Assembly (NCBI GenBank): GCA_963752475.1
Contig: CAVVYR010000029.1
Coordinates: forward strand, 1 to 64,000
Reading direction: 5' to 3'
Origin: an uncultured Chloroflexia bacterium
GTDB lineage: Bacteria > Chloroflexota > Limnocylindria > Limnocylindrales > CSP1-4
Length of the DNA: 64,000 nucleotides
In this document: in pieces, positions 6,915-40,070 of the stretch
Position numbering within the stretch: position 1 is the stretch's first letter
Layout: each line of letters starts with the position of its first letter
Notes under the pieces: generated by a model
The model's database searches: none
Told to the model about the DNA's origin: nothing
Seen by the model: the letters and a program-made list of their open reading frames with translations, nothing else
Made by a program: the position numbers and the translations under genes

Positions 6915-7024
6915 GTCTCCCCTGACCCACAGCGGAGACACCAACCAGAGCATCCGAGGATCAGGAGTCAGAAGGGGATCGAAGGTTCGAATCCTTCCTC
7001 GCCAGCCATTCCCATGAGCGTGAA
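6915..7024 (+). repeat. att-like junction copy 1: conserved arm plus tRNA-Gln 3' fragment (6973-7008)
   Basis: AGGGGATCGAAGGTTCGAATCCTTCCTCGCCAGCCA = variable loop, T arm, acceptor 3' strand and CCA; upstream arm and downstream TTCCC..TGAGCGTGAA shared with the 16161-16306 copy. Confidence 0.8.
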
Positions 7025-7138
7025 GGTTGGGTTCGGGTACCGGATCGAAGGGCGCACCACCTTCGAACTACCCCCAGCGCCACCCCCACCAACTGCCTGG
7101 GACACCTCATCCGACTCCTCGGGTGGAGCGGCCGAGAA

Positions 7139-7230
7139 TCACATCCATCCGATCTGCGACATGCCGTCCGTGAGGTGCCCGTAGGTATCCAAAGTCGTGG
7201 AGATGGTGGAGTGACCGAGCACCTTGGATT
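7139..7230 (-). pseudogene. Tyrosine recombinase/integrase C-terminal remnant
   Basis: SKVLGHSTISTTLDTYGHL matches the box II LGH...Y motif; about 130 bp from the tRNA fragment; the rest of the gene is absent. Confidence 0.75.
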
Positions 7231-7353
7231 CCGGTGCCTCATCGCCGGGCCAGATGGGGCTCTCGACGTTGATCGATCCGTTCATGGCGCGAACCAAGCG
7301 GTCCGCGAAATAGGGAGTAGTGTGCATGGCGTGAACGGACTCACGCCAGACAG

Positions 7354-7977
7354 ATGACCAAGAGATTGACTGGAGCGGAGACGCGTGCCCGGATCACCGC
7401 CTCGGTCGTTGCCCTTATCGAGGAACAGGGCGCCGCCGGTATCAGCACGTCTGAAGCGATGCGCCGAGCCCAGGTCTCGCGAACTGCCTTCTATCGACAC
7501 TATTCCGATGTCTACGCCGTCGTCGTGGAGATCCTGGAAGGGGTCGCGCTGGAGTTCCAGGAGCAGTCGGGTGGTTGGTTTAGGGACCCGGGGAGTGTCG
7601 GCAGCCTTGCCGTCATCTACCCGAACCTCCTCGCCTATGCCCGTGCCTACGTCAAGTACGGCCGACTCATGGCGGCGCTAGCGGACGCTGCGGGCGTCGA
7701 TGATCGTGTCCATTCGATCTGGTGGGATGATCTGATCGGGGGCTACGTCGACACCACTGCTGCCGCGATCAGGCGGGACCAGGCGGCCGGGGCGATCCGC
7801 GCCGACCTTGACCCCGAAGACACGGCCTCCGCTCTCACGCTGGCGGGAGAACGGGTCTCGTACGACTTGTTCGGGCGTCATCGACGCGGGGAGCCAGAGG
7901 ACTTCGCTCGGATCATGTCGCCGATCTGGGCCGCGTCGCTCTTCGGTGTGGTCCCGGCCGACGACGACCCCTCATAG
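7354..7977 (+). CDS. TetR/AcrR family transcriptional regulator
   Basis: N-terminal HTH ...RRAQVSRTAFYRHYSD; 207 aa. Confidence 0.85.
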   Translation: MTKRLTGAETRARITASVVALIEEQGAAGISTSEAMRRAQVSRTAFYRHYSDVYAVVVEILEGVALEFQEQSGGWFRDPGSVGSLAVIYPNLLAYARAYVKYGRLMAALADAAGVDDRVHSIWWDDLIGGYVDTTAAAIRRDQAAGAIRADLDPEDTASALTLAGERVSYDLFGRHRRGEPEDFARIMSPIWAASLFGVVPADDDPS

Positions 7978-8139
7978 GGCCGACTGTGCGATCCAGCCGC
8001 GACGGGTAGTTCGGCTGGAGCTAGGGGATGTGACGCCCTGTCACTTTGAAGGTACCCTTGCTGCGGGGCCGGCCCCAGCGGGGCTTAGCCATTACGCCCA
8101 CGAACGACACGGCCCGATGGCCCGACAGAGGAGAACACC

Positions 8140-9597
8140 ATGGCAGGCGACATCCCCAAGGGCTACAACACGCCGATCCCCGTGAAGGTCACCACGCCCG
8201 ACCAGGTAGAGACCAGCCTCGGGACACTCGACTTCGACGATGGTGTGCCCACGGCCGAGACCGCCCAGAAGCTCTTCCACAACCTCGACCTCATGCGTGC
8301 AGTGGAGGTGTTCCTGAACTGCATCCCGGCCGCGTCCATGGAGGCGGTGCGTCTCGGCCTCGCCGAGGTCGGGGCCGATGCCAACCACAAGATGGGCATC
8401 ATGGATCGCCTGCTGGATTCCGATCCCCTGTTCCTGACCGGCAACACCGACACCGTGTACTGCTCGGGCTTCCTGGACCTGACGGACGGTCCGCTCGTCG
8501 TGGAGATCCCACCCGGCTGCGGTCCCGGCACCGTGAACGACGCGTGGTTCCGCTTCGTCGTCGACATGGGCGGACCGGGTCCCGACCGCGGTCAGGGCGG
8601 CAAGTACCTCTTGCTACCGCCCGACTACGAGGGCGAGGAGCCCGAAGGCTACTTCGTGGCGCGTTCGCGCAGCTACGGCAACGCGCTCGTCCTGCGTGGC
8701 TTCCTCGTCGATGGTAAGCCTGACGCCGCGGCGCGCATGTTCCGCGAGGGTGTGCGGATCTACCCACTGTCAGAGGCGAACGACCCGCCGCAGATGGAGT
8801 TCGTGAGCACATCCGAGCGGCAGTTCAACACCGTCCACGCCAACAACGTCGACTACTTCGACGAGATCGCCCCGGTCATCGCCCGCGAGCCCGTCGAGAT
8901 GATCGATCCCGAGACTCGCGGCCTGCTGGCCTCGATCGGCATCCACAAGGACAAGCCCTTCGCCCCCGACGAGCGCATGCGCGAGATCCTCGTCGAGGCC
9001 GCAGCCATCGGCAACGCCACCGCTCGCGCCCTCTTCTTCCACAACCGTGACGAGGGCTTCCTGCTCTACGACGACCGCCAGTGGCACACCTTCTTCATCG
9101 GCGGTGACTATCGCTGGCTGCGCGATGACGGCCGCGGTGGCCGGCACCTCGACGCACGCTCACTGTTCTTCTACGTGGCCACCGTCAACACGCCGGCCAT
9201 GGCGCTGGAGATGGTCGGCATCGGCTCGCAGTACGGCGGAGCCTCCAAGGACGCCGACGGCGACTGCTTCGATGGCGCTGCCGACTACCGGTTGCGGTTG
9301 CCGGCCGGTGTCCCGGTGAAGGACTTCTGGTCGGTCTGCGTCTACGACCCCCAGACGCGCTCCGAGCTACAGACGGGCCAGCCCTTCCCCAGCCTCAACA
9401 ACGTCAGCGGTGACCTCGAGTTCAACAGCGACGGCTCGGTCGACCTCCTTTTCGGGCCGGAACCGCCTGCGGAGAAGGCCGGCAACTGGATCCAGACGGT
9501 GCCGGGCAAGGGCTGGTTCGCGGTCATCCGCCTGTATGGGCCACTCGAGGGGTGGTTCGACAAGACGTGGAGGCCGAACGACATCGAGAAGATCTGA
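8140..9597 (+). CDS. DUF1254/DUF1214 domain protein
   Basis: LTGNTDTVY, GPDRGQGGKYLLLP, FWSVCVYD, DGSVDLLFGP, NWIQT and RLYGP motifs; RBS GAGGAG. Confidence 0.88.
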   Translation: MAGDIPKGYNTPIPVKVTTPDQVETSLGTLDFDDGVPTAETAQKLFHNLDLMRAVEVFLNCIPAASMEAVRLGLAEVGADANHKMGIMDRLLDSDPLFLTGNTDTVYCSGFLDLTDGPLVVEIPPGCGPGTVNDAWFRFVVDMGGPGPDRGQGGKYLLLPPDYEGEEPEGYFVARSRSYGNALVLRGFLVDGKPDAAARMFREGVRIYPLSEANDPPQMEFVSTSERQFNTVHANNVDYFDEIAPVIAREPVEMIDPETRGLLASIGIHKDKPFAPDERMREILVEAAAIGNATARALFFHNRDEGFLLYDDRQWHTFFIGGDYRWLRDDGRGGRHLDARSLFFYVATVNTPAMALEMVGIGSQYGGASKDADGDCFDGAADYRLRLPAGVPVKDFWSVCVYDPQTRSELQTGQPFPSLNNVSGDLEFNSDGSVDLLFGPEPPAEKAGNWIQTVPGKGWFAVIRLYGPLEGWFDKTWRPNDIEKI

Positions 9598-11415
9598 CGT
9601 CGGGGCCCGCGGTGTCCGAGGTCAGATGTCGAAGACCGACTTCACCAACGACACCCACCGGGCCAGCCGTGACCGGTCGCCGCCGACGTCGTAGACATCG
9701 CGGAACAGCAGCTCCACGACGCAGTCACGCGCCGCATCGTACGTCCGGCGAAGGTCGGGCTTGCGGCTGAAGACGTAGTCCGACCCACCAAGGGATGTGA
9801 CACGCTGATCACGTTGAAGGTAACCATGCCGACGGGGTCGGGACCAGCGTCGGGACACCGACTTCGAGGATGGCGTGCCCACGGCCGAGACCGCCCAGAA
9901 GCTCTTCCACAACCTCGACCTCATGCGTGCAGTGGAGGTGTTCCTGAACTGCATCCCGGCCGCGTCCATGGAGGCGGTGCGTCTCGGCCTCGCCGAGGTC
10001 GGGGCCGATGCCAACCACAAGATGGGCATCTTCGATCGACCTCCTGGATTCCAATCCCCTGTTCCTGACCGGCAACACCGACACCGTGTACTGCTCGGGC
10101 TTCCTGGACCTGACGGACGGTCCGGTAGTGGTGGAAGTCCCGCCCGGCTGCGGTCCGGGAACCGTGAACGACGCCTGGTTCAGGTTCGTCGTCGACATGG
10201 GCGGACCGGGTCCCGACCGCGGTCAGGGCGGCAAGTACCTCTTGCTACCGCCCGACTACGAGGGCGAGGAGCCCGAAGGCTACTTCGTGGCGCGTTCGCG
10301 CAGCTACGGCAACGCGCTCGTCCTGCGTGGCTTCCTCGTCGATGGTAAGCCTGACGCCGCGGCGCGCATGTTCCGCGAGGGTGTGCGGATCTACCCGCTG
10401 TCAGAGGCGAACGACCCGCCGCAGATGGAGTTCGTGAGCACATCCGAGCGGCAGTTCAACACCGTCCACGCCAACAACGTCGACTACTTCGACGAGATCG
10501 CCCCGGTCATCGCCCGCGAGCCCGTCGAGATCGATCGATCCCGAGACTCGCGGCCTGCTGGCCTCGATCGGCATCCACAAGGACAAGCCCTTCGCCCCCG
10601 ACGAGCGCATGCGCGAGATCCTCGTCGAGGCCGCAGCCATCGGCAACGCCACCGCTCGTGCCCTCTTCTTCCACAACCGTGACGAGGGCTTCCTGCTCTA
10701 CGACGACCGCCAGTGGCACACCTTCTTCATCGGCGGTGACTATCGCTGGCTGCGCGATGACGGCCGCGGTGGCCGGCATCTCGACGCACGCTCGCTGTAC
10801 TTCTACGTCGCCACCGTCAACACGCCGGCCATGGCGCTGGAGATGGTCGGCATCGGCTCGCAGTACGGCGGAGCCTCCAAGGACGCCGACGGCGACTGCT
10901 TCGATGGCGCTGCCGACTACCGGTTGCGGTTGCCGGCCGGTGTCCCGGTGAAGGACTTCTGGTCGGTCTGCGTCTACGACCCCCAGACGCGCTCTGAGCT
11001 ACAGACGGGCCAGCCCTTCCCCAGCCTCAACAACGTCAGCGGTGACCTCGAGTTCAACAGCGACGGCTCGGTCGACCTCCTTTTCGGGCCGGAACCGCCT
11101 GCGGAGAAGACCGGCAACTGGATCCAGACGGTGCCGGGCAAGGGCTGGTTCGCGGTCATCCGCCTGTATGGGCCACTCGAGGGGTGGTTCGACAAGACGT
11201 GGAGGCCGAACGACATCGAGAAGATCTGACGTCGGGGCCCGCGGTGTCCGAGGTCAGATGTCGAAGACCGACTTCACCAACGACACCCACCGGGCCAGCC
11301 GTGACCGGTCGCCGCCGACGTCGTAGACATCGCGGAACAGCAGCTCCACGACGCAGTCACGCGCCGCATCGTACGTCCGGCGAAGGTCGGGCTTGCGGCT
11401 GAAGACGTAGTCCGA
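8212..11415 (+). repeat. Near-identical tandem duplication, about 1.63 kb period (8212-9783 vs 9843-11415)
   Basis: Gene body and about 185 bp of downstream non-coding DNA are repeated almost verbatim. Confidence 0.92.
9843..11229 (+). pseudogene. Second copy of the DUF1254/DUF1214 gene, lacking its 5' end and frameshifted
   Basis: ORF pieces 9875, 10008 and 10609 reproduce the 8140-9597 protein. Confidence 0.8.
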
Positions 11416-11418
11416 GCC

Positions 11419-11605
11419 CATCATCTCCGCCGCCATCGTGGTGGCTGCCTCACTCAGTGGTGATGTCGTGGTGCTCACGATGGTCGGCGCGCTCATCATC
11501 CCCATCGTCCTCATCGTCCTCGCCGGCGAGCTGGGCAGGCGGGTCGCGCCGACCGTCGGCGACGCGAACGGCGAGACACCGGCCACCGAACCAGCCTCCC
11601 GCTGA
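11419..11605 (+). pseudogene. C-terminal fragment of a membrane transporter (bile acid:sodium symporter-like)
   Basis: IISAAIVVAASLSGDVVVLTMVGALIIPIVLIVLAGELGRR; no start codon; begins at the duplication boundary. Confidence 0.4.
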
Positions 11606-11624
11606 GCACACCAAGGAGTCTTAG

Positions 11625-12953
11625 ATGAACAGCACCATGACCGCCACTGAGGCCAAGGCCATCGCCAGGGAGGCCTACCTCTTCGCCTTCCCCATGCTGA
11701 TGGGCTACCGCTTCGCCTACGCCACCTTCCTGCAGCCGGCATCGCCGGCCTACCGCGGCCCAGCCAACAGCGGGCCCTTCGGCAAGGCCGTCCCCCTCGA
11801 TCACACCTTCAAGGACGTCATCACCCCCAACTCGGATACGCCCTACTCGTTCGCGCTGCTCGACCTGCGCGCCGGCCCCGTGGTGGTCTCGGCGCCGGAG
11901 ATCAGCGGTCGCTACTACGTCCTCCAGTTCGAGGACCTGCTCGGCTTCAATGAACTCTTCGTCGGCAGCCGTGCCACCGGCACGGAGGCCCAGCGCTGGT
12001 TCCTGATGGGCCCGCGCTACGAGGGCGACGTACCCGACGGCTTCGACGGCTCGCACCGCTTCGAGACGGAGCTCGTATTCCTGCTCGGCCGCACCCAGCT
12101 ACTGGGCCCCGCGGACCAAGCCGACTGTGGCGAGGTCATGGCCAGCTACCGGGTCGAGCCCAACTCCAGCGCGACCGTCCCGGCGACCGAGTGGCCGGCG
12201 TGGATCGATGAAGCCTCGCGCGACGAGCGTTTCATCGGCTACCTGAACGCCCTGCTGCCACTCTGCGAGCCGCTCCACCCCGCTGACGCCGACCTCTTCG
12301 AGCGCATGGAGCAGCTCGGCATCGGCGCCGGTCGGCCCTTCGACGCAGCGGCACTGGACCCGGACATCCGCGATGCCATCCGTGCAGGCGTCTCCGAGGC
12401 GCGGGCGGCCATGCCCGAAGCCATCTCGGCGATCAGCGACCTCGTCGACGGCTGGCAGCTGTCGAGGCGTTCGCCCTTCGGGAACCGCGCCCACTACGAT
12501 GGTGACTATCTGCTGCGCGCCAGCGCGGCCATGCTCGGCTGGGGCGGCAATGACCTCATCGAGGCCAGCTATCCGCTCTCACGTGTCGACGCCGATGGCG
12601 ACCCCTACGACGGCAGGGCCACGTATCGACTGCGGCTCGACTCGGATCCGCCGGTGCGCGCGTTCTGGTCGCTGACCATGTATGACACCTCGTACGACGG
12701 CACCGCCGGCTATCTCGTCGAGAACCCCATCGACCGCTACCTCATCAGCTCCACGACCGAGGGACTCGTGCGCGACAAGGACGGGGGCCTGGTCATCACG
12801 CTGCAGCGGGATGAGCCGACCGACCCGGTCGAGCGTGCCAACTGGCTGCCGACACCCGACGGCCCCTTCTACCTGTCCTTCCGTCTGTACTGGCCGGAGG
12901 CCTCGGCGCTCGACGGCAGCTGGACCGTGCCGCCGGTCCGGCGCATCGACTGA
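11625..12953 (+). CDS. DUF1254/DUF1214 domain protein (divergent paralog)
   Basis: VITPNSDTPYS, PPVRAFWSLTMYD, NWLPTP and RLYWP motifs; RBS AAGGAG. Confidence 0.88.
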   Translation: MNSTMTATEAKAIAREAYLFAFPMLMGYRFAYATFLQPASPAYRGPANSGPFGKAVPLDHTFKDVITPNSDTPYSFALLDLRAGPVVVSAPEISGRYYVLQFEDLLGFNELFVGSRATGTEAQRWFLMGPRYEGDVPDGFDGSHRFETELVFLLGRTQLLGPADQADCGEVMASYRVEPNSSATVPATEWPAWIDEASRDERFIGYLNALLPLCEPLHPADADLFERMEQLGIGAGRPFDAAALDPDIRDAIRAGVSEARAAMPEAISAISDLVDGWQLSRRSPFGNRAHYDGDYLLRASAAMLGWGGNDLIEASYPLSRVDADGDPYDGRATYRLRLDSDPPVRAFWSLTMYDTSYDGTAGYLVENPIDRYLISSTTEGLVRDKDGGLVITLQRDEPTDPVERANWLPTPDGPFYLSFRLYWPEASALDGSWTVPPVRRID

Positions 12954-13077
12954 ATCGCCGCTGCGAGGGCCGCCCAAGGATGGGCATCATGCTCGCAGGT
13001 GTGTAGCGTCGGCACGCGGGCCGGCGGTTGCAGGGAATGGCTTGGTCGGCGATCCGGCCCGAGAAGGAGTGACTTCG

Positions 13078-13440
13078 ATGAAACCGTTGGGCACCGATGA
13101 TGCGCCCGAGCGGCTATCCCGCGAGGACATGCTCGACCAGCTCCAGGTCATGGCTCGCCAGATCGCCAGCGACGCACCCCCTGCTCTGCGTGAGGCCAGC
13201 GTGGTCGCGGCTGAGCTGGCCGCGATCGCCGCGCGCGGCACTGGTCCCATCGCGCACACGCTGGCAGACCTGACCGACGATGCCAGCCTGCGCTTCGCGG
13301 AGCGCATGGAGGCCTACGCCGCGAGCGTCCGTGAGGCGGACGTCATCGAGGCCGACCTGAGCGACAGCGACGGTGCTGAGACAGACGACAGCACCTCGAC
13401 GGAGGCCACCGAACCAGCCGAGATGGAGGACCGAGAGTGA
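13078..13440 (+). CDS. Hypothetical protein, acidic C-terminus
   Basis: RBS AAGGAG before ATG; stop overlaps the GTG of the next gene. Confidence 0.6.
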   Translation: MKPLGTDDAPERLSREDMLDQLQVMARQIASDAPPALREASVVAAELAAIAARGTGPIAHTLADLTDDASLRFAERMEAYAASVREADVIEADLSDSDGAETDDSTSTEATEPAEMEDRE

Positions 13441-15683
13441 GCCCCGAGGCCAAGGACCCCGGCCCCAGTCGAGAGATCGTGACAGCCGGCGCGAAGGGAC
13501 CGGCCGAACAGTGGACATGGGTGCGCCCGCTCCTCGTGCGCGTGGGCGTCAACGCCCTGACCCTGCTGGCCGCACTCATCGTATTCAGCTTCATCCGGCT
13601 TCCCGGAACCAACGCTGCGGGTGAGTACGTCCTCAATGTGCCGCTGCTGGAGATCAGCGGCGGCGGATTGCTGGCGCTCATCCCGCTGGGCCTGTCGCTG
13701 GCGCTCGTCGAGACCTTCGTCAGGCCCATCCTGACCGCGCTCTTCGGCAAGTACGTGATTCGCACGTATGGCCTGCTGCTCCTGCTTGTCAACGCGATCG
13801 TATTCTGGGTGGCCATCCTGCTCGTCACGAGCCTCACTCGGCTCGACGTGTCCGTGCCAGACCCGCAGTGGCTGTGGATGCTGGTGGTAGCGGCGCTCTT
13901 CTCGCTCGCAGTGCTGGTGGTCAACACCTTGATCGGGCTCAATCGGCCGCGTCTCAGTGAGCTTGGAGCTGGCAACCCGTTTTGGCAACTCGTGGACAGC
14001 CTGCCGCTGTCGCGTCGTAGCCGTGTCGTGGAGAACCTGCGCCTGGGCGAAGTCCGGCAACTGCTCTACGAATATGCCATCGACATCTCCCTCTCGAACA
14101 CGAGCCTGGGCAGACTGCGCAACGTGGGCGACCGGCTCCTGGGACGCGACTCGGACGAGTTCGACGACCTGACGACGCCGGCCAAGGTGCGGGTCATGCT
14201 GCAGCAGCTGGGGCCGACGTACGTAAAGATCGGCCAGATGGTCTCCAGCCGCGCGGACCTACTGCCAGAGGGTTGGCGCGAGGAGCTGGAGAAGCTCCAG
14301 AACGACGTTCCGCCGGTGCCCTACGAGAAGGTCGAGGCCACCATCATCAAGGATCTGGGCAGCAGCCCGGACGAGCTCTTCAGCGAGTTCGACCGAACAC
14401 CGCTGGCGGCAGCGTCGCTGGCCCAGGTGCATCGCGCCCGACTGCCCAACGGCGATGCCGTCGCGGTGAAGGCGCAGCGACCCGACATCGGTGCGCTTGT
14501 GCGCGCCGACCTCGGTGTCATCGAGGACCTCGCAGCCCAGGGCGAACGAGGCGTGGCAGCCGCCCGGGCCATGAACCTGCACGCCGTGGTCAAGGAGTTC
14601 GGAGCCGGTGTCATCCAGGAGCTCGACTACGACATCGAGGCGTATCACGCGCTGCGCCTGGCCGAGGTGCTCGAGGGCATGGAGGGCGTCCATGTCCCAC
14701 GTGTCTATCTCGACCACAGCTCACAGCATGTCATCACCATGGAGTTCATCGCCGGTATCAAGCTGACGCGGAGCGAAGAGATCGACGCGGCGGGCATCGA
14801 CCGCGAGACAGTCGCCCGACGCCTCCTGCGCGCGTTCATCAAGCAGGTGCTGATCGTGGGCTTCTTCCACGGCGACCCTCACCCGGGCAACCTCGTCATC
14901 GACCCAGAGACCAGCACCGTGACGTTCCTCGACCTGGGACTCATGGGCGAGCTCGACAGCGCCAAGCGGATCCAGCTGCTGAGCCTGATGTGGGCACTGC
15001 GCGAGCGTGACCCCAATGCTCTCGCGACCGCCATCCTGGGCGTTTGCGAGCGGACCGGACCGGTCGACGAAGACAGGTTCAAGAACGGCATCCAGCGCGT
15101 CTGCTACCAGTACTGGATCTACGGCACGCCGAACTTCTCCAAGATGATGGCGGCCATCTTCAGCGTGCTGTCCGCCAACAACCTGCGCCTGGACAAGTCG
15201 CTCACGCTGGCCATGAAGTCGCTGATCCAGGCGGAGGAGCTGATCAGCACGCTCTCGCCGGACTTCCCGCTCGTCGAGGTCATGTTCGAGGAAGGACAGG
15301 AGCTGCTACAGACAGAGTTCACGCCTGAGCGCCTGAGCGAGTTGGCCAAGGCCGAGCTGACAGGGACGATGGTCGAGCTGGGCCAGAGGTTGCCCTCCCT
15401 GCGGAAGGCGACCTTCGGCTGGCTGGACCAGTATCAGCGCGGTCGCTTCGTGGTCACGATCGACACTGGGGACCTCCAGAAAGGCCTGGAGTCGGTGGGC
15501 TCGGTGAGCAAGAACCTGACCATCGGCCTGATCGTGGCCGGCCAGCTCGTGGCACTCGCCCTGGTCCTGGCTATCGTCGTCAGCAACGATGCCCTCGACC
15601 AGGGTCTGCTCAATCTCTTGACGCTCGCGTTCGGTGCCTTCCTCGTGTTCAGCGTGGTCGTTATCCGTCGCGTCTCACGGTGA
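13437..15683 (+). CDS. AarF/ABC1/UbiB atypical kinase with N-terminal phage-holin-like (YvlD-type) membrane domain
   Basis: LGPTYVKIGQ, AAASLAQVHRA, VAVKAQRP, FFHGDPHPGN and FLDLG; N-terminal LVETFVRPIL...YGLLLLLVNAIVFW. Confidence 0.85.
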   Translation: MSPEAKDPGPSREIVTAGAKGPAEQWTWVRPLLVRVGVNALTLLAALIVFSFIRLPGTNAAGEYVLNVPLLEISGGGLLALIPLGLSLALVETFVRPILTALFGKYVIRTYGLLLLLVNAIVFWVAILLVTSLTRLDVSVPDPQWLWMLVVAALFSLAVLVVNTLIGLNRPRLSELGAGNPFWQLVDSLPLSRRSRVVENLRLGEVRQLLYEYAIDISLSNTSLGRLRNVGDRLLGRDSDEFDDLTTPAKVRVMLQQLGPTYVKIGQMVSSRADLLPEGWREELEKLQNDVPPVPYEKVEATIIKDLGSSPDELFSEFDRTPLAAASLAQVHRARLPNGDAVAVKAQRPDIGALVRADLGVIEDLAAQGERGVAAARAMNLHAVVKEFGAGVIQELDYDIEAYHALRLAEVLEGMEGVHVPRVYLDHSSQHVITMEFIAGIKLTRSEEIDAAGIDRETVARRLLRAFIKQVLIVGFFHGDPHPGNLVIDPETSTVTFLDLGLMGELDSAKRIQLLSLMWALRERDPNALATAILGVCERTGPVDEDRFKNGIQRVCYQYWIYGTPNFSKMMAAIFSVLSANNLRLDKSLTLAMKSLIQAEELISTLSPDFPLVEVMFEEGQELLQTEFTPERLSELAKAELTGTMVELGQRLPSLRKATFGWLDQYQRGRFVVTIDTGDLQKGLESVGSVSKNLTIGLIVAGQLVALALVLAIVVSNDALDQGLLNLLTLAFGAFLVFSVVVIRRVSR

Positions 15684-16090: not shown

Positions 16091-16160
16091 GCTATGGAAC
16101 CGTGGGAACACGCCCCGACCGCGGCACTCCCGGGCGCCGCCAGTCTCCTAGCCACCTAGC

Positions 16161-20408: not shown

Positions 20409-20612
20409 CGACCCGACCTGTCGCTGTCATCGGCCGAGAAGCGCGGCCAGGGAAGGATGACGCCCCTCCGACGGTGCTTGTCGGCACTACCGAGGATCGC
20501 CGCGACTCCGCTACGACGAGAACGACCGCGAACACCTGGTGTCCCCATGGCGTTCGCTCGCCTGTCCTGCACGCCAGCAGGCACGACATCGGCCGCCTTG
20601 AGGGGAGACGCT

Positions 20613-21098: not shown

Positions 21099-21161
21099 CC
21101 GGGCCCATCTCAGGGTCTACCTCGTGCGTGCCGATGCTGCGAGAGGTCTGCCGGGGTGCGC

Positions 21162-21743
21162 TCACTCACCTCCCCCAGGCTTCAAGTCCCGGAACGCCTC
21201 GTCCATGCGCGGGGTCATCCACGGCCACGGCCTTGGTTCGACGTTCTGGACGATCTTGCGGACGAACGCCTCGGTGTTCTCGATCTTCGGCCGGACCGCC
21301 GGCGCCACGTCCTTGTTGTGGGCCACGAACGAGGAGTAGACGTACTCCCGAAGGTCCGACGGGAGCCCATCGAAGAAGCGCATGGGCAGGTTGACCCAGT
21401 TCACCATCAGCCCCGTCTCCACTCGCTCACGTTTCTTCGGGACCAGGTAGCTGACACAGAGCTGGTCGAGCATCCCGAGCATCGACGCCTCGAAGCCGGC
21501 GTTCGCGGCATGCTGCTTCATCTGGCCGTACATCCGCTCCAGGCTCGGCGCGAGCACGCAGCCGCTCAGGTCGAGACTCTCCGAGTGCTGGTAGGCATCG
21601 ATGATGGGCTGACCAGCGAAGTAGGCGTCCTGGATGAAGAACTCACCGAACGACACGGCCCCGCGGAGCGGCAGGCCAACGTCGAACATCTGCCGCAGCA
21701 GAACGGCGCACACCTCGATGAAGCCAACGACACGGGTCCCCAC
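21162..21743 (-). pseudogene. Nucleotidyl-cyclase-like protein, N-terminally truncated
   Basis: LPLRGAVSFGEF...FAGQPIIDAY resembles the class III cyclase-fold RGAI-GE/G-A-V-AY signature; N-terminal acidic motifs not found. Confidence 0.5.
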
Positions 21744-21916
21744 AAGGAAGATGTCCTCATCTGGGTTGGGACCAATTCCATGGAACCGGTCCCAACAATA
21801 GCTTCTGAGTCAAGGCCAGCAGGCACACGTGACCACCCGCAAGCCGCGATCCAGCAGGCTCGGCAGCTAGGCTCCGGATCGAGCGGCGGTGGCGTCGCGA
21901 ACCACGGGCTCGGCGA

Positions 21917-23356: not shown

Positions 23357-23444
23357 CGTGGAAGGGTAGCGCGTGGCACATGCCTTCCCAGGAGCCGCTC
23401 GGGGCGGGCAGATGACTGCGGGGCACGCCGCTCCGGTGGTCCCA

Positions 23445-23490
23445 ACTCTGGATCGGGCGACCGAAGGTTCGGATCCTTTCTCGCCAGTCA
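23445..23490 (+). repeat. tRNA-Gln 3' fragment copy 4 (about 6 mismatches)
   Basis: ACTCTGGATCGGGCGACCGAAGGTTCGGATCCTTTCTCGCCAGTCA. Confidence 0.7.
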
Positions 23491-23515: not shown

Positions 23516-23794
23516 TCAGATATGCCTGTGCAAGTCACCTTCAGTGCCGGAGTCGGGCTCGTCTTCGCGTGGAGCCTGCTCCCATCCCAGCTGCTCCACG
23601 GCCTCATGTGTGAGGCTGAGGTGGATGGTCTCGTGTTCCACATTGGCGATGTATGAGGCTGGAACGTAGAGGTCCGCCGCGAAGCCATGGCGAGACACCA
23701 GGACGAAGCTTCGCCCCACGTCCTTGACGGCGCCCAGCCGACGATCGTCGTTGGTCACGACAGTCCAGCCTGGGCGAAAGTCTGTCATCCGCAT
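23516..23794 (-). CDS. DUF2171/PRC-barrel-like small protein
   Basis: RPGWTVVTNDDRRLGAV...DLYVPASYI. Confidence 0.65.
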   Translation of the reverse strand: MRMTDFRPGWTVVTNDDRRLGAVKDVGRSFVLVSRHGFAADLYVPASYIANVEHETIHLSLTHEAVEQLGWEQAPREDEPDSGTEGDLHRHI

Positions 23795-23870
23795 CGTGGC
23801 ACCCCATGGAACATGCTATGAGCATAGAGCCAGGTGAGCTCGGGCGGCAGTTCGCGTCGTTCGGCTGGCC

Positions 23871-24950
23871 TCACGCTGCCGTCACGACACCCCGCTGGAC
23901 GTTCGTGACCTGCGAGACGAAGGGCGAGGTCATGGCTCGGACGAGCGCGCTGTAGCCCAGACCGAATCGGACCTCGGTCCCGACCGGCGGCAGGTCCGAC
24001 CCACAATCGAGGACCAGGTGATCGCTGCTGGCCCCGGTGATCTCGAACCCGGGAGGTGCGGTCAGCGAGTGGCAATCGGTGTCCTGCTCTCCGACAGCGA
24101 GTACCGCTTGCTGCGTGATCCCGTTCCGCTCGGGCCGGGTGGCCTGGCCGAACGCACTCTGGGCGATGTCACCCCACGGCTGGGAAGGCTTGGGCCCCGA
24201 TTCGATGACTTCCGCGACCAGGGTGATGGCATCGGTGTGGAGCCCGTCCATGGGTCGGCGATGAAGCGGCTCCCGCCCCAGCAGTAGGGATTCGCCAAGG
24301 CGCAGATCATTGACACGCCCGGTGTCGGCTCCGCTGAGGACCCAGTCGAGGTTGCCGGAGTTGCCTCCGGAGATGATCGGCAAGACGAGTCCGAACGTGG
24401 CCTCGATCGAGTCGGCCAAGCCTGAGAGTTCGCCCATGTTCCTGGTGTCAGGCGAGACGCCGTTGTGGCAGGCGAGGTTCGTACCGATACCGTCGAGGGA
24501 GATGTTCGGCAGTCGCAGGGTCTCGCGGGCCACGCCCTCAAGATCGAGGGGCATGATGCCCTCGCGCAGGTCCCCCAGCTCCACCATCAGGACCACACCG
24601 TGGACCCGCTCCGCCCGAGCCGCCGCAGCAGACAGATGGCGGATGACGGCGATCTCGGTGTTGAGGCTCACATCCGCCTCGCGGACCACGATATCGACCT
24701 GCGTGAGCATGGGTGAGCGGATGAGCGTCAGTCGGGCCGTGATCGAGGCCACCCGCAAGGCATGCAGGTTCTCGACGCGAGAATCGCCTAGCCCGGCAAC
24801 GCCGGCCCGCAACCACACCTTGGCGATCTCGGAGGAGCCCAACGTGGCCTTGGTCACGCCCGTGACGGCGATGCCCCGGGCAGCGAGGGCTCCCACGAGC
24901 ACATCGGCGTTGTGCTCGATCTTGACGAGATCGATCTCCAGTCGCGGTGT
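23871..24950 (-). CDS. Alanine/ornithine racemase family PLP-dependent enzyme (start uncertain)
   Basis: PRLEIDL, GVTKA, DSRVEN, MVELGDLREG, ISGGNS, LRLGE and GASSDHL. Confidence 0.85.
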   Translation of the reverse strand, partial: TPRLEIDLVKIEHNADVLVGALAARGIAVTGVTKATLGSSEIAKVWLRAGVAGLGDSRVENLHALRVASITARLTLIRSPMLTQVDIVVREADVSLNTEIAVIRHLSAAAARAERVHGVVLMVELGDLREGIMPLDLEGVARETLRLPNISLDGIGTNLACHNGVSPDTRNMGELSGLADSIEATFGLVLPIISGGNSGNLDWVLSGADTGRVNDLRLGESLLLGREPLHRRPMDGLHTDAITLVAEVIESGPKPSQPWGDIAQSAFGQATRPERNGITQQAVLAVGEQDTDCHSLTAPPGFEITGASSDHLVLDCGSDLPPVGTEVRFGLGYSALVRAMTSPFVSQVTNVQRGVVTAA

Positions 24951-24952
24951 GG

Positions 24953-26200
24953 CTAGCGTGTCGCGGCGCTCGGTATCCGTGCGAGCTCGGGGAAGGCCGT
25001 GAAGACCATGTCCACGAGCGACGCCGGCGATCGCGTCAGAGCGTCGGTGGTGGTGAGGCCAAGGTCGCGTTCGTACTGCCCGATGGCCGCGCTGACCTGC
25101 GCCTCGTCCATGTTCTCGTGGTTGATGGTCAGGCCGATGACTTGCGTGTCCGCGAAGGTCTCGATGAGCTCGATCTCCGAGCGGGGCTCAGGCATGGCCA
25201 TGGCCGGGAAGTCGCAGCGATGTGCTCGTCTCGGTGCGTGCTGCAGGATCACGGCCTGGGGACAGCTGCCGCGCAAGATGAAGGACGAGGTCGAGTAGGC
25301 CGGGTGGCTGAGCGCTCCCTGCCCCTCGACGATGATGACGTCGGGCTGCTCGGCTTCGTAGGCCTCGATGATGGTGGCCTCCAGCTCGCCGGCGCAGAAC
25401 TGAGTCGGAACGGCGTCGAGCGCGACGCCATAGCGGGCGCCCTGCATCAGGCCGGTCTGACCGGTACCGACCATCACCGCCTTGAGGCCGCGGTCACGGA
25501 GGGCTTGGGTCAGGACCGTCGCGGTCGTCCGCTTGCCGATGGCGCAGTCGGTACCGAGGATCGCGATGCGCGGGCAGTCGACCTCTGAGATCCGTCCGCT
25601 GAAGACGCGCAGGTCCTTCGTCGCCCGAGGCTTGCGGACATCGCGGATGCGGACCCCGTTGGTGGCAGCCGCCACCGCGAACTCGGGGTCATCGGCGAGG
25701 AACTCGTGCAGGCCGCTGACGATGTCCATGCCCAGGCCGATGGCCTTGAGCACGAGCGCGCGCTCGTGGACCGACAGCATGCCACTCGAGGGCGCGATCC
25801 CGAAGATGAAGTAGTCCGGCACTCGGTCCGCGTGGGCCAGCGCCGCCTCGAGGTCGAGACAGATGGGGATCGCGTTGGGCTCGCCATCGAGCACGAGGCC
25901 GCTGTCGAGGCCGGCCTTGTGGCTGTCGATGACGGACACGATGTCGTACTTCTCGGAGTGACGGACGAGCCCGTTGGCCGTCTTGCCATCGACGGCACCG
26001 AAGTTCGCCTCGCAGTAGACGACCGCGGTCGCGAGTCGCTGGCGGTCGGCGACGGACAAGTGCGACTTGGATACGACTTGGGGCGAGGGCGCCAATGGGT
26101 TGCTAGGCGGATACACCGGAGCCTGGATGGGCGTGGTATCGCCGGTCGGCGATACCGGGAGGGGGCTCGCTGCCGGAGCGGCAGCCGGGACTGAGGTCAT
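24953..26200 (-). CDS. DUF1611 domain protein (DgcN-like)
   Basis: GKTANGL, IVSGLH, GTDCAIGKRTT, TGQTG and VEGQGAL. Confidence 0.88.
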   Translation of the reverse strand: MTSVPAAAPAASPLPVSPTGDTTPIQAPVYPPSNPLAPSPQVVSKSHLSVADRQRLATAVVYCEANFGAVDGKTANGLVRHSEKYDIVSVIDSHKAGLDSGLVLDGEPNAIPICLDLEAALAHADRVPDYFIFGIAPSSGMLSVHERALVLKAIGLGMDIVSGLHEFLADDPEFAVAAATNGVRIRDVRKPRATKDLRVFSGRISEVDCPRIAILGTDCAIGKRTTATVLTQALRDRGLKAVMVGTGQTGLMQGARYGVALDAVPTQFCAGELEATIIEAYEAEQPDVIIVEGQGALSHPAYSTSSFILRGSCPQAVILQHAPRRAHRCDFPAMAMPEPRSEIELIETFADTQVIGLTINHENMDEAQVSAAIGQYERDLGLTTTDALTRSPASLVDMVFTAFPELARIPSAATR

Positions 26201-26225
26201 GAAGGCTCCAAGTGTCGGTGGGGGG

Positions 26226-26639
26226 CTATCGTGAGGAGTGACTGCGGAAGCGCAGGAAGGCGAGGTACTTGAGCAGCTCCTCCTCCTCCTCGGCGGTCAG
26301 GTCGTCGATGGCGAACACGGCTAGCCGCCGCTGTCGTCCGTCCTGCCCGTCGGTGTCGGGCAGGAGATACCCGGCCTTCTCCATCAACGTCTCGTAGGGG
26401 ACGCCGTAGACCTCTGCGAGGCTGCGCAGGACGTCAGGCGACGGCTTCTTGATCTTCTGGCGTTCGAGCTGGCTCAGGTACGCGTTGGAGACCGCGCCAC
26501 CGGTAGCTTCCTGGACCTCTCGGAGCGAGAGCCCCTTGGCCTTGCGCAGATCAGCGAGGACGATACCGATGACGTTGGGCTGCCCCTCGAACTCGGAGCG
26601 GCTCTCGTCGCTCTCGCTAGCGGGGGTGTCGTCGGTCAC
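26226..26639 (-). CDS. XRE-family HTH transcriptional regulator
   Basis: LRKAKGLSLREV...SNAYLSQLE...KPSPDVLRSLAEVYGVPY; C-terminal LTAEEEEELLKYLAFLR. Confidence 0.85.
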   Translation of the reverse strand: MTDDTPASESDESRSEFEGQPNVIGIVLADLRKAKGLSLREVQEATGGAVSNAYLSQLERQKIKKPSPDVLRSLAEVYGVPYETLMEKAGYLLPDTDGQDGRQRRLAVFAIDDLTAEEEEELLKYLAFLRFRSHSSR

Positions 26640-26645
26640 CTGCTC

Positions 26646-26674
26646 ACTATACTACACGTTGCTAAGTTTCTCAA
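26646..26674 (-). promoter_or_regulatory. Sigma70-type promoter of the XRE gene (leaderless)
   Basis: TTGAGA-N17-TATAGT, 6 nt before GTG. Confidence 0.7.
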
Positions 26675-26764
26675 GCGCGAGTATCGTACGTGCACGAACG
26701 TGTGCCATCCGCATTCCGATCTGCGCAGGGTCTGAGCGTCGCCACGTTGAAGAGGTCGAACGTC

Positions 26765-27274
26765 ATGCGCTACCGCCTTCCAAGCATCCGCCTGAGTCCG
26801 GCGGTGTCGCGGGTCTCCGCAAGGCGACCCACTAACCCAGCGCCGCCTTCAACACCCGATGCCGCTCGCCAAGCGGCCGGGCGGGTGATGCAGACCGGAG
26901 GTCGACTCGTGAGGCCCGTGAGTCGCTCGGTCGAGAACTTCGCCGATCGCTTCTTCCACCGTGCGAGCCGCCGATCCTTAACGTCCCAGGCCCAGCCGAC
27001 CGCGCCACTCATGGTCGCGGGAGGCCCAGAAGCGGTCGTGCCCGAGGTCCGAGGTAGCTCGGAGGACGAAGCTATCGAACGCCTGGTGGCAGCGGGCCTG
27101 GTGGTGGAGCGGCTGGGCGCAGATCGATCCGACGGCCCGCCGACCGGATGTGTCCTGCGCACGAAGCCGGCAGCCGGTGCCGTCGTTGCGGTCGGCGCCA
27201 CGGTGGGCTATGTCGTCGCCTCGCCGCTATGGCCGGCCCCGGAGGCGCTCGTACCGCAGCCACATCGACCCTGA
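26765..27274 (+). CDS. PASTA domain-containing protein
   Basis: VVPEVRGSSEDEAIERLVAAGL...GCVLRTKPAAGAVVAVGATVGYVV. Confidence 0.55.
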   Translation: MRYRLPSIRLSPAVSRVSARRPTNPAPPSTPDAARQAAGRVMQTGGRLVRPVSRSVENFADRFFHRASRRSLTSQAQPTAPLMVAGGPEAVVPEVRGSSEDEAIERLVAAGLVVERLGADRSDGPPTGCVLRTKPAAGAVVAVGATVGYVVASPLWPAPEALVPQPHRP

Positions 27275-27391
27275 TGCCTTCAAGTCCCTCACGCGGGTCC
27301 CGGTGATCGACTCGCCTGGCCTGCTCGGCCATCCGCTGCACGACGGGTGGGACCTCTGAGAGCACGTACCGCAAGGTCGTGGTCGCCGAAG

Positions 27392-28249
27392 CTAGGCGTC
27401 CTCATCGCGGTCGAAGAGGGAGCGGAATCGATCGACGAGAGAACGAGTCGCCCCATCGGGATCGTCGACATCTGATTCTTCGGATGTCGTGCCGTCCATC
27501 GCGTCAAGTTCCGAACCCTCGTCGATGGCCGATCCATCGCCGGTCGCGTCAGTCGCATCGCCGAGGTCAGTTGCGTCCTCATCGGCGAGATCGGGTTCGG
27601 TTCCGGGTGCCCAGACCTTGGTCAGCTTGGGCTTGTAGTAGGCGTGGAGGATCTCGATGCTGTCGTATTCGAGCCGCTCCGCGCAGTCCTGGGCGCTGGT
27701 CGCATAGAGCCTCCATTCGTCGTGGTCTTGCGCGCACTTGGTGGCCGAGCCCTGGCGGTAGCCGGTGAGGAAGAACTTGTCGTTCTTGCGGAGCGACAAG
27801 CCCCAGAGCTCGTCGCGAGCCGCTTTCTGCTTCTCGGTCGGTTCGGCCGTCTCCGGTCGGTAGACCTGATCGTTGCCGTCGTCACGTACGTCGTAGCACA
27901 TGCCTCCGGCTGTCTTGTAGCCGTCTCGGTGATTGCCCTCGAGGGCGTAGTACCAGGCGTACTGCTTCGTGACGAGCGCCCCCGCCTCCAGCAAGGCCAC
28001 CGGCAGCGATGTGGGCCACTCGCCGGACGCCATGACCACGGCCACGTAGCGCTTGAAGCCGACTTCCTCCACCTTGCCCGCGGCCGTGCGGAGCACGAGG
28101 ATCGACTCCGGCGGCTCCTTCTTGCTCGTCCAGTTGGTGCCACACGCGGCCTGCGCCGGCGGCGGGTCGGCGGCGGCGATCAGCAGTGCCACGAGCACAG
28201 CGAAGACTGCCGAGAGCACGATGGATCCGAGACCTGATCGCTGGGACAT
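27392..28249 (-). CDS. SpoIID/LytB domain protein, exported
   Basis: YVAVVMASGEWP, LLEAGALVTKQYAWY, YDVRDDGNDQVY and ILHAYY. Confidence 0.75.
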   Translation of the reverse strand: MSQRSGLGSIVLSAVFAVLVALLIAAADPPPAQAACGTNWTSKKEPPESILVLRTAAGKVEEVGFKRYVAVVMASGEWPTSLPVALLEAGALVTKQYAWYYALEGNHRDGYKTAGGMCYDVRDDGNDQVYRPETAEPTEKQKAARDELWGLSLRKNDKFFLTGYRQGSATKCAQDHDEWRLYATSAQDCAERLEYDSIEILHAYYKPKLTKVWAPGTEPDLADEDATDLGDATDATGDGSAIDEGSELDAMDGTTSEESDVDDPDGATRSLVDRFRSLFDRDEDA

Positions 28250-28380
28250 GTGTGGACGGTACCGCACCCGCCTGCCTTGCCCCTCTTCCTTGAAGACAAG
28301 GTCATCGAAGATGCGCCGGGCGCTTCGACACTGAGCCAGTCGCTATCATCAGCACCCCGCCCCGACGCTTGAAGGACCGC

Positions 28381-29415
28381 ATGCCACCCACCCGGACAGA
28401 CGCATCGCCGATCATCCGCGCCAAGGACGTCGTCAAGCGCTTCGGCAAGGAAACACTCGCACTCGACGGCGTCAGCCTCTCGATCGAACCCGGCAGCATC
28501 TATGGCCTGCTGGGTCCGAACGGCGCCGGCAAGACGACGCTCATCCGCGTGCTGACCACACTGCTAGAGCCGGACGCGGGCGAGGCCTGGGTCGCCGGCG
28601 TGGACGTCCTGAAGGATCCAGTCACCGCGCGCACCAAGATCGGCCTCGCCGGCCAGTCTGCCGCGATCGATGGCTTCCTCACGGGCAAGGAGAACGTGGA
28701 GATGATCGGGCAGCTATACGGCCTGCCGTCCGGGGAGGCCAGGTTGCGAGCCGCAGATGTGCTGCGACGCATCGACCTCACCGACGCGGCCGATCGCCAG
28801 GTGAAGACGTACTCCGGTGGCATGCGCCGGCGACTGGACCTGGCCGCATCACTCGTCGGTCGCCCGGAGGTGATGTTCCTCGACGAGCCGACGACCGGCA
28901 TCGACCCGCGCAGCCGCATCGACATCTGGGACATCATCCGCGACCTCCAGTCGGAGGGCACGACGCTGCTCATGACGACGCAGTATCTCGAGGAGGTCGA
29001 CTACCTCGCTGACCGCATCGGGGTCATCGACCACGGGAAGCTCATCGCCGAGGGCACGGCCAACGAGCTCAAGTCCCGTATCGGTGGAACGATCATCGAG
29101 GCGGTCGTGCCCGAGGAACAGCGGGAGCTCGCGACCGACGTCCTGCGCGACGCTACCGGCGAGGAGCCGATGTTCGAGCCCAACAAGGCCTGCCTCGTGG
29201 TGCATGCGCCAGAGGGGTCCAAGACCCTCATCAGCGTCGTGCGCGCACTCGACGCAGCGGACATCACGGCTGAGGACCTGGAGATGCACAAGCCAACGCT
29301 CGACGAGGTCTTCCTCACCTTGACCGGCCATGTGGCCAAGACGGAGGGGGACGAGGAGGAGGAACCGGCGCCGACGGCCGCTGGCCGCTCGCGATTCGGG
29401 AGGCGACCCCGATGA
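28381..29415 (+). CDS. DrrA-family ABC exporter ATP-binding protein
   Basis: GPNGAGKTT, YSGGMRRRLDLA, LDEPTTG and TTQYLEE. Confidence 0.9.
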   Translation: MPPTRTDASPIIRAKDVVKRFGKETLALDGVSLSIEPGSIYGLLGPNGAGKTTLIRVLTTLLEPDAGEAWVAGVDVLKDPVTARTKIGLAGQSAAIDGFLTGKENVEMIGQLYGLPSGEARLRAADVLRRIDLTDAADRQVKTYSGGMRRRLDLAASLVGRPEVMFLDEPTTGIDPRSRIDIWDIIRDLQSEGTTLLMTTQYLEEVDYLADRIGVIDHGKLIAEGTANELKSRIGGTIIEAVVPEEQRELATDVLRDATGEEPMFEPNKACLVVHAPEGSKTLISVVRALDAADITAEDLEMHKPTLDEVFLTLTGHVAKTEGDEEEEPAPTAAGRSRFGRRPR

Positions 29416-30248
29416 CGTCCACTACCCGGAACGCTCCCGCCCGGGCCAGCATCAGTCCCGCTCGTGGACTGCGTGACATGGCCATCATCGCCAAGCGGAA
29501 CCTGCTGCGGTTCGTGCGCATGCCACAGCTGCTGCTCTTCGCAGTCGTGCAGCCGGTCATGTTCCTGCTGCTGTTCAACTTCGTCTTTGGCGGCGCGCTC
29601 GCGTTGGGCTTCGGCGGAGCTGATGGCAACTACATCAACTTCCTCATCCCGGGCATCCTTGTCCAGACCGTCGTCTTCGGCGCGACGAATACCGCGGTCG
29701 GGCTGACCGAGGATCTCAACGCCGGCGTCATCGACCGCTTCCGCTCCCTGCCCATGGCCCGCTCGGCGGTGATGGGCGGGCGCACGATCGCCGACCTCGT
29801 TCGGAGCGCCGGCGTGCAGGCGCTGATGCTCGTCGTAGGCATCATCATCGGCTTCCAGGCCGGCAGCTGGATCGGGCTCGGCGTCGGCTTCGTCCTGGCC
29901 GTGCTCTTCGGCTTCGCGGTGTCGTGGTTCTTCGCAGCCCTTGGCCTGACGGTGCGCAACCCGGAAGCGACCCAGGGCGCGTCGTTCGTGCTGGTGTTCC
30001 CGTTCGTGTTCGCCAGCTCGGTATTCGTGCCCACGGCCACGATGCCGGACTGGCTGGCCCTGTTCGCCGAGAACCAGCCGGTCACGATCCTGACCAACAC
30101 GGTACGCAAGCTCACGTTCCCGGATACACCCGTGGCCGGCGGAGACTCGATCGAGTCGCTGATCATCCGCTCGCTGCTCTGGATCGTCGGGCTCATCGCT
30201 GTCTTCGGCTGGCTCAGCGTTCGCCAGTACAAGAAGGTCGTGTCCTAG
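29412..30248 (+). CDS. DrrB-family ABC-2 permease
   Basis: QPVMFLLLF, DRFRSLPMAR and MPDWL..FAENQP. Confidence 0.88.
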   Translation: MTSTTRNAPARASISPARGLRDMAIIAKRNLLRFVRMPQLLLFAVVQPVMFLLLFNFVFGGALALGFGGADGNYINFLIPGILVQTVVFGATNTAVGLTEDLNAGVIDRFRSLPMARSAVMGGRTIADLVRSAGVQALMLVVGIIIGFQAGSWIGLGVGFVLAVLFGFAVSWFFAALGLTVRNPEATQGASFVLVFPFVFASSVFVPTATMPDWLALFAENQPVTILTNTVRKLTFPDTPVAGGDSIESLIIRSLLWIVGLIAVFGWLSVRQYKKVVS

Positions 30249-30271
30249 CTCCTCGCCGCTCAGGCCTTCCA

Positions 30272-30317
30272 GACCCTGGACCAGGGACTGGAGGTTCGAG
30301 TCCGTCCTCGTCAGCCA
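30272..30317 (+). repeat. tRNA-Gln 3' fragment copy 5 (most degenerate, about 9 differences)
   Basis: GACCCTGGACCAGGGACTGGAGGTTCGAGTCCGTCCTCGTCAGCCA; upstream GCCGCTCAGGC shared with copy 3. Confidence 0.65.
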
Positions 30318-40065: not shown

Positions 40066-40070
40066 CGGTG

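Follow-up and report, generated by a model that had tools for sequence, protein, structure and literature searches.

Integrase-free Gene Blocks Probably Accreted in Tandem at a tRNA-Gln Gene of an Uncultured Chloroflexia Bacterium

RESULTS

Partial Copies of tRNA-Gln(CTG) Separate Accessory Gene Blocks

The DNA analyzed here (the window) comprises the first 64,000 nucleotides of contig CAVVYR010000029.1 (C29) in assembly GCA_963752475.1 (G000), the genome of an uncultured Chloroflexia bacterium; the assembly is 88.8% complete. An initial annotation had described five co-oriented 3' halves of tRNA-Gln(CTG) between unrelated accessory genes and had read them as an ordered, integron-like record of repeated integration into a tRNA gene. 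The halves are preceded by one of two conserved sequences, termed arm A and arm B, and each such site is called a scar. The sites found in the window are as follows.

6915 to 6974, plus strand: arm A, truncated by a ∼31-nt deletion (proximal GAGCGTG motif and 7-nt loop gone)
6973 to 7008, plus strand: tRNA-Gln(CTG) 3' half, copy 1, then the left-end motif GAGCGTGAA
7154 to 7240, minus strand: remnant of a phage-type tyrosine integrase (C-terminal 25-30 aa), oriented towards the tRNA half
16156 to 16240, plus strand: arm A, complete (∼85 nt), an inverted repeat without covariation, GAGCGTG 11 nt before the loop
16241 to 16285, plus strand: tRNA-Gln 3' half, copy 2, its start exactly the anticodon loop CTCTGGA
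17901 to 17930, plus strand: stub of a tRNA-Thr(CGT) 3' half nested in block 5, immediately ahead of arm B (score 44; shuffles at most 24)
17933 to 18021, plus strand: arm B, complete (∼90 nt); also at 22021-22108 of contig C10 and in the relatives G006 and G335
18022 to 18066, plus strand: tRNA-Gln 3' half, copy 3
19632 to 19721, plus strand: sixth scar, arm A and a loop with one mismatch, tRNA half missing (a profile seed)
23415 to 23490, plus strand: proximal ∼28 nt of arm B and tRNA-Gln 3' half copy 4 (23446-23490)
30254 to 30317, plus strand: proximal 20 nt of arm B and copy 5 (30274-30317), the outermost detectable scar

The presence of five halves on the plus strand was borne out: a 28-nt core gave four matches in the window at up to three mismatches, compared with none in 100 shuffles, and copy 5 was detected by nhmmer with an E value of 3.4e-7. 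Over 45 nt, copies 1-5 differ from copy 2 at 0 (loop missing), 0, 3, 6, and 9 positions, exactly as first counted by hand, the nine of copy 5 being eight substitutions and one gap. Four copies had been said to start at the loop, but only copy 2 does so cleanly, and copies 3-5 extend 5' into the stem and arm B. Arm A sites match the tRNA from the first base of its 7-nt anticodon loop onward; at arm B sites, part of the anticodon stem is also common with the tRNA. Arm A occurs in G000 at 16156 and 19632, as a truncated copy at 6915, and at two places on C10. Arm B stands before copy 3 and before the half at C10:22109, with 20-30 nt of it retained at copies 4 and 5. Left-end motifs downstream of the halves read GAGCGTGAA or the inverse. 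The scar at 6915 is likely inactive, because its deletion took both the GAGCGTG motif and the loop. The conserved arms and the tRNA-Thr stub are additions to the initial description. Its partition of the region held insofar as the scars do separate accessory blocks, but a supposed 5.4-kb block is two blocks, of 1.7 and 3.7 kb, split by the sixth scar.

Eighteen of the arm A hits are themselves profile seeds, and the non-seed hits are those in G001 C5, G005, G014, G021 (73961), G340, and L123, at C10 25705, and at window position 6908. Because the arm B profile was seeded with copy 4, its hit at 23359 arises by construction; the stretch there is mostly nucleotidase upstream DNA common to G021. 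An RNA or single-strand structure in the arms was rejected, given that the sites fold no better than shuffles (z −1.67 to 0.08); covariation in the arm A inverted repeat was equaled by 272 of 500 shuffles, and positions 6000-31000 gave zero Rfam family matches.

Sequencing-run data (X numbers) are mixed-community contigs with unassigned carriers, and unitigs break at repeats in any case. Site 19715 was considered as a secondary-site capture junction, which is possible, but a contig of run X4 with a joint from 16292 to 19719, where a tRNA half is joined to 19719 (side 33 nt), favors deletion. One X1 contig joins arm A straight to 7260, skipping both tRNA half and integrase remnant.

The Intact Target Gene Lies Upstream on Another Contig

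ARAGORN found zero tRNA genes in the window. The intact tRNA-Gln(CTG) of G000 lies at C10:18947-19022, with the RACo gene upstream of it and scars downstream at 22109, 23929/23966, and 25791, where C10 ends. In four relatives (G021, G013, G009, and G024), a single contig carries in order the genes to the left of the tRNA, the tRNA, and the genes found in the window from ∼48.7 kb, the array region lying between the tRNA and this right-hand core. Given this one-contig synteny, C10 very likely precedes the window in the same orientation, and the intact plus-strand tRNA-Gln(CTG) that had been anticipated upstream is accounted for. The gap between the two contigs is at least ∼4 kb and lies inside the array, because the first window block is missing a left part that G021 possesses and that could not be located as a block anywhere else in the assembly. 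A genome-wide profile search for the Gln half placed all 10 of its 10 hits within the array (C10 and the window) on the plus strand; the fragments are thus not scattered through the genome on both strands. Strain-variable DNA continues ∼18 kb beyond copy 5, until ∼48.7 kb. The GC content of the window is flat (63-71%), so composition gives no mark of the region.

The intact tRNA carries one extra A in the T loop relative to ten relatives; this likely reflects faulty sequencing, as do several frameshifts in window 1-6756. A second tRNA-Gln and a tRNA-Leu called by ARAGORN on C10 are not genes but chimeras of arm and half. Positions 1-600 of C10 match C19 and C27 at ≥99%, a repeated element or assembly redundancy.

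Integrases Are Represented by Remnants in the Array

The integrase remnant adjoining copy 1, already noticed in the initial annotation, is real: it is 66% identical to residues 324-353 of a 365-aa tyrosine integrase (E 1.4e-4), and its orientation towards the tRNA half is the same in G021, G019, G008, and G005. At 7229-7305, it is joined to a fragment that looks like the end of a G024 sensor-kinase gene. A longer remnant from G021 retrieved full-length proteins of 365-369 aa with PF14659 and PF00589, of which P0001 (365 aa) matches that remnant at 94% over the 64-aa query and at 90% over 73 residues. Long matches to the family occur in 13 of 49 genomes of the genus. Those that can be placed adjoin tRNA-Arg(TCG), tRNA-Pro(GGG), or tRNA-Lys and point towards the tRNA; in the elements at tRNA-Pro in G015 and G153, the distal Pro half begins at the loop. 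The 17 viral relatives of P0001 are distant (best full-length identity 38%), and a phage source was not supported, two patterns giving zero viral contigs.

A profile of six full-length integrases applied to 30 regions (∼1.2 Mb) returned fragments only, in seven regions, where tails of 25-200 aa lie at left ends. A PF00589 search of G000 and five relatives found no intact integrase inside a Gln array. In G000, this search gave one remnant and two genes that we take, from inspection of their sequences, to be XerC- and XerD-like; the P0001 search returned the same genes plus two more remnants, and the PF07508 search one weak partial hit. No candidate for a resident helper integrase was present among these matches. 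The intact integrase expected near the tRNA was therefore not found in this assembly, which is 88.8% complete and has a gap of at least ∼4 kb inside the array. A Pfam scan of 51 + 12 G000 open reading frames (ORFs) revealed no primase, helicase, terminase, or capsid hallmark genes.

Arms and Blocks Recur in Related Genomes

The site was matched in 21 of 24 same-genus genomes, most by the tRNA alone. A strict arm A pattern matched four of 301 family genomes, namely G000 and three of 18 from the genus, with none among the 282 others and no control matches. By profile, arm A was found in G000, G001, G005 (partial), G010, G013, G014, G021, and G340 and on one metagenome contig; one metagenome arm is 90% identical to window 16156-16240. 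G021 carries ten scars over 67 kb of a single contig, with blocks of 1.8-20 kb, and further arrays are present in G001, G010, and G013. Arm identity is 76% within a genome compared with 71% between genomes, and arm lineages cross species, which rules out arms particular to each species, of the kind known from super-integrons. A third arm type, near-identical in the two genomes, precedes tRNA-Gln halves in G153 C3 and G345 C3. In G001 C8 (two scars), in G013 C2, and after tRNA-Cys in G339 C5, the same sequence, which has an insertion-sequence-like end (presumably IS481-like), starts right after the CCA of tRNA halves or genes.

Whole blocks recur as well. Counterparts of the block with sugar transport and glycyl-radical (PFL-like) genes at the left of the window, 77-78% identical to it, are present in the Gln arrays of both G021 and G340, where arm A again terminates them; G340 and G021 have unlike left ends of this block, and the spacers preceding arm A are unalignable. 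Block 5 (1.8 kb, integrase-free) is 93% identical in G006, compared with 69-79% for the core, which indicates transfer between species. In run X6, a 2369-nt soil contig aligns with 16241-18074 (52 differing letters and 27 gap letters), flanked on both sides by unrelated DNA. In run X3, from the same study, a contig covers 16241-17975 at a depth of 16.9, compared with 3-6.5 for the listed pieces of the neighboring block; runs with small word shares were left out, and the low cover of block 6 in X3 and X6 carries no weight. Run X4, from another study, contains three different sequences after the tRNA half, two of which match left ends of C10 blocks. Taken together, the intact tRNA, the restriction of the array to one strand, the synteny, and the recurring scar-bounded blocks support the original proposal that an upstream tRNA-Gln(CTG) was repeatedly the target of integration at its anticodon loop.

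Remnants of tRNA-Thr(CGT) Sites Are Nested in the Array

The stub at 17901-17930 corresponds to 30 nt of the junction between the block 5 ATPase gene and a Thr half. This ATPase is found in tRNA-Thr(CGT) arrays of G021 (85%) and G340 (83%) with the Thr half directly after it, and in G340 it forms a 1.54-kb Thr-to-Thr cassette. At the other end of block 5, positions 16286-16350 resemble the arm before a tRNA-Thr(CGT) half in G340, scoring 50 against at most 38 for shuffles; the comparison with the G021 Thr arm was not significant (22 of 500 shuffles as high). On C10, a Thr half precedes the arm B of block 1 (53 versus 24), and a Thr-like stretch, less pronounced, lies at the left end of that block (46 versus 38). 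The toxin-antitoxin pair (82%) and the nucleotidase (88%) of block 7 sit in the tRNA-Thr array of G021, and further Thr halves lie after tRNA-Gln in G341 and within the G001 region. Among the genomes examined, full arm B is restricted to G000, G006, and G335; a Thr half precedes it in both G000 cases and in G006. These nested remnants suggest that cargo has moved between tRNA arrays.

The tRNA-Thr(CGT) arrays themselves comprise at least three loop-start scars in G021 (C19 55416-70710) and at least six in G340 (C5 309567-343928); no integrase match was present in the 40 kb searched at each. In G000, a smaller pair of tRNA and 3' half, with two integrase remnants, is located at tRNA-Thr(CGT) (C1 192458-215156), and further pairs are located at tRNA-Gly(TCC) (C29 234956-240498) and tRNA-Gly(CCC) (C6 82765-85410).

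Cargo of the Blocks

The genes between the scars, and those beyond the last scar, are arranged as follows.

1 to 6756, plus strand: right part of the sugar-ABC, radical-SAM activase, and glycyl-radical (PFL-like) block, the remainder to the left being lost in the assembly gap
7354 to 15683, plus strand: block 4, TetR regulator, three DUF1254/DUF1214 genes, ABC1 kinase
16286 to 16350, plus strand: left end of block 5
16385 to 17887, plus strand: AAA_14 and DUF4143 ATPase, sole cargo of the 1.8-kb block 5
18205 to 19490, no single strand: block 6, protein without Pfam match (minus), DUF2249 (plus)
19771 to 23284, no single strand: block 7, Phd-family antitoxin and PIN/VapC-like toxin, PNPOx-like protein, unknown ORF, 5' nucleotidase
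23516 to 30248, no single strand: block 8, DUF2171, racemase-like, DUF1611, HTH, PASTA, SpoIID-like, ABC-2 exporter
30318 to 48690, no single strand: scar-free variable tail (sugar transporters, others), partly common to G340, G014, G005, and G013; the core resumes at ∼48.7 kb

The blocks hold 1-20 genes on mixed strands with their own regulators, and they consist of cargo between retained att sites without recombination genes, as in cis-mobilizable elements (CIMEs). The ATPase of block 5 corresponds to the PADLOC candidate defense system PDC-S01 (E 2.4e-99), and its true start is probably downstream of 16385. Two of the three DUF1254/DUF1214 genes in block 4 derive from a 1632-bp tandem duplication (8156-11423; 97%), the second copy being frameshifted; the duplication is either real or an assembly artefact.

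On C10, an 1857-bp block occurs in two head-to-tail copies that reach the contig end (22109-25838; L001 16110-19839), with a 37-nt partial tRNA half at the junction. Its cargo is an HTH_17/AbiEi-like gene and a partner without a Pfam match, presumably a type IV toxin-antitoxin-like pair. The sole cargo of C10 block 1 (L001 13269-15917) is an 882-aa protein with a signal-peptide-like start, no Pfam family above cut-off, and an internal repeat (671 nt at 99.9%). Elsewhere in the window, intergenic GC-rich repeats of 38-95 nt lie at 50251-50645 and 61448-61542, a related copy being 11 kb away, in both orientations, and short tandem repeats on the minus strand at 59190-59392 are consistent with a His/Asp/Glu-rich stretch of ORF 58699-59727.

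DISCUSSION

Tandem Accretion and Its Alternatives

The array is probably the product of tandem accretion at the anticodon loop by elements of the P0001 family, with deletion of integrases leaving cis-mobilizable blocks that new active elements reshuffle. Here, the window would represent the outer part of a stack of blocks downstream of the intact tRNA-Gln(CTG). Each block would end in a conserved arm and a tRNA half made by repeated tyrosine-integrase insertion at the 7-nt loop, and the integrase genes would then have been lost from the blocks by deletion. In accordance with what is established for tandem integration, an internal scar would combine two elements, one supplying the right arm and the next the tRNA half and left end, and the host's own displaced copy would survive in the outermost half alone. 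An incoming element whose ∼365-aa integrase belongs to the P0001 family would enter at the tRNA and might excise together with resident integrase-free blocks (accretion and cis-mobilization), moving and reordering them. Some blocks may first have been bounded by tRNA-Thr(CGT) sites and have reached the Gln array nested in Gln-type ends.

Several observations weigh against this explanation. The junction between C10 and the window is placed by synteny and is unassembled. No intact integrase-bearing element was found at tRNA-Gln, and neither arm A nor arm B was ever seen together with a whole integrase on one element. GAGCGTG is all that arm A has in common with the distal arm at tRNA-Pro in G015, whose tandem GTACCC repeats are missing from arm A. 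In G335, arm B is not preceded by a Thr half (as high a score was reached by 73 of 500 shuffles), and the run contigs examined contained no excised circle or empty site.

A doubtful alternative is a genus-wide pool of integrase-free mini-cassettes that visiting integrases move singly in trans between species and tRNA sites, the gene-less, ∼100-nt arm B acting as an address adapter that docks tRNA-Thr cassettes at tRNA-Gln. If the adapter reading were true, the Thr cassettes would be the defense ATPase, the toxin-antitoxin pair, and the secreted protein. Closely related, and unlikely, is the proposal of dedicated non-autonomous cassettes that never had integrases and are moved singly in trans by a helper elsewhere, arm B again readdressing tRNA-Thr cassettes to tRNA-Gln. 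Such cassettes would fit with blocks as small as 1.7-1.9 kb that keep both ends, with the sharpness of the block boundaries, with the conservation of arm A in eight genomes with GAGCGTG fixed at −11, with the scar-to-scar occurrence of block 5 in runs X6 and X3 (in X3 at raised depth), with the Thr half before full arm B in three cases, and with the lack of a full-length integrase in the arrays examined. However, the integrase tails at left ends in seven regions are what decay of once-autonomous elements predicts, and the sugar/PFL cargo has different left ends and unalignable spacers in three species. In addition, arm B of G335 lacks the Thr half, G000 offers no candidate helper, and cis-mobilization yields the same end products. 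Cis-mobilization explains the data equally well as the capture in trans put forward in the initial annotation.

The same annotation had treated the scars as a strict chronology, in which insertions push older blocks outward, none moves later, and decay dates the blocks; this is very improbable. Differences from the intact half do rise along G000 (0, 0, 3, 3, 1, 4, 7, 8; rho 0.92, n = 8) and G001 (1, 2, 1, 7, 7, 8; rho 0.88, n = 6, two contigs), and the scar-free tail is outermost. One of the G001 points, however, is a Gln/Arg hybrid rather than decay, and indels in the C10 copies may be sequencing errors. The ten scars of G021 (7, 3, 8, 0, 4, 3, 5, 2, 5, 3; rho −0.26, n = 10) largely refute the gradient as a general rule, and those of G010 read 5, 0, 9. 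The position of the sugar/PFL block varies (first in G340, sixth in G021, at least fourth here), as do its neighbors, and distal block 5 (93% in another species) looks younger than proximal block 3 (77-78%). Given that the gradient fails in G021, that block positions vary, and that distal block 5 looks younger, scar order is at best a loose guide to age and provides no reliable chronology. One T/C difference is common to window copies 1-4, to many scars of relatives, and to the intact tRNA of G018. Because this difference is so widely shared, and because half and left end would come with the incoming element, part of the apparent decay may consist of allele differences carried in by elements. 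Scar decay is unusable as a clock without a second array. As a side observation, the half of a scar on G001 C8 (region position 49163) mixes two targets, its beginning being tRNA-Gln and its end tRNA-Arg(TCG).

An integron, in which a resident IntI captures promoterless cassettes at folded attC sites, is hardly tenable and the label "integron-like" was dropped: repeated sites do part accessory blocks whose cargo includes toxin-antitoxin and candidate defense genes, but no integrase lies beside the tRNA, P0001 scores 62 bits against the 265 cut-off of the integron-integrase model, neither the folding of the sites nor the arm A repeat (no covariation) resembles attC, and the blocks are multi-gene, of mixed orientation, and equipped with their own regulators.

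Relation to Known Systems

A literature search, with supplements outside its scope, turned up no paper on this locus. We take Dehalococcoides to belong to the Chloroflexota, as does the present host. Among its tandem ssrA islands, 15 lack an integration module and are read as CIMEs, with a conserved upstream motif (PMC3146451). As in the array described here, the intact target gene is followed by many repeats of its 3' part, each with the motif directly before it, and the outer region is free of repeats (PMC3146451). In Dehalococcoides, the target is tmRNA, the crossover lies in the T loop, the integrase is a serine integrase, and 16 islands keep a six-gene integration module (PMC3146451). By contrast, the present array involves the anticodon loop of tRNA-Gln and a tyrosine integrase remnant, and no intact module was found.

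CIMEs, microCIMEs, chimeric att sites, and nested elements have been defined in streptococci (PMC5704250, PMC7563491), where, as here, integrase-free cargo (1.2-13 kb) keeps its att sites, internal att sites are chimeric, and "matryoshka" nesting and cis-mobilization occur. Streptococcal composites consist of two to three elements, always with an active or decayed integrative and conjugative or mobilizable element (ICE/IME) nearest the target (PMC5704250, PMC7563491). The present arrays differ in having up to ten blocks without an intact integrase and the sites of a second tRNA nested inside.

In the tycheposon islands of Prochlorococcus, new elements likewise push older ones inward, leaving partial tRNAs and fragmented integrases, so that the push-outward model of the initial annotation is already in print (bioRxiv 10.1101/2020.12.28.424599). 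Tycheposons carry integrase, replication, and packaging hallmark genes (bioRxiv 10.1101/2020.12.28.424599), none of which was present in the Pfam-scanned G000 ORFs. In the Islander collection, anticodon-loop crossover (subsite A) accounts for 2083 of 3919 islands, with four tandems of three or more, and an intact tRNA with a co-oriented 3' fragment downstream is the shared arrangement; Islander demands an integrase per island, and the present blocks would fail its filter (PMC4383910). Near-identical cassettes in different species are also a feature of the additive flexible islands of Alteromonas (PMC4898812).

In summary, the array is not an integron but probably a tandem accretion of cis-mobilizable islands, a process known from Dehalococcoides, streptococci, and Prochlorococcus. 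Its less usual traits are the absence of an intact integrase from the arrays examined and the nested tRNA-Thr sites. Island finders based on integrases would overlook such blocks. The defined sites (arm A, arm B, and the tRNA-Gln loop), together with a matching 365-aa integrase, provide a basis for a test of mobilization in cis versus in trans. For the organism, the finding shows an uncultured soil/sediment lineage of Chloroflexia gaining sugar-use, toxin-antitoxin, and candidate defense genes in blocks.

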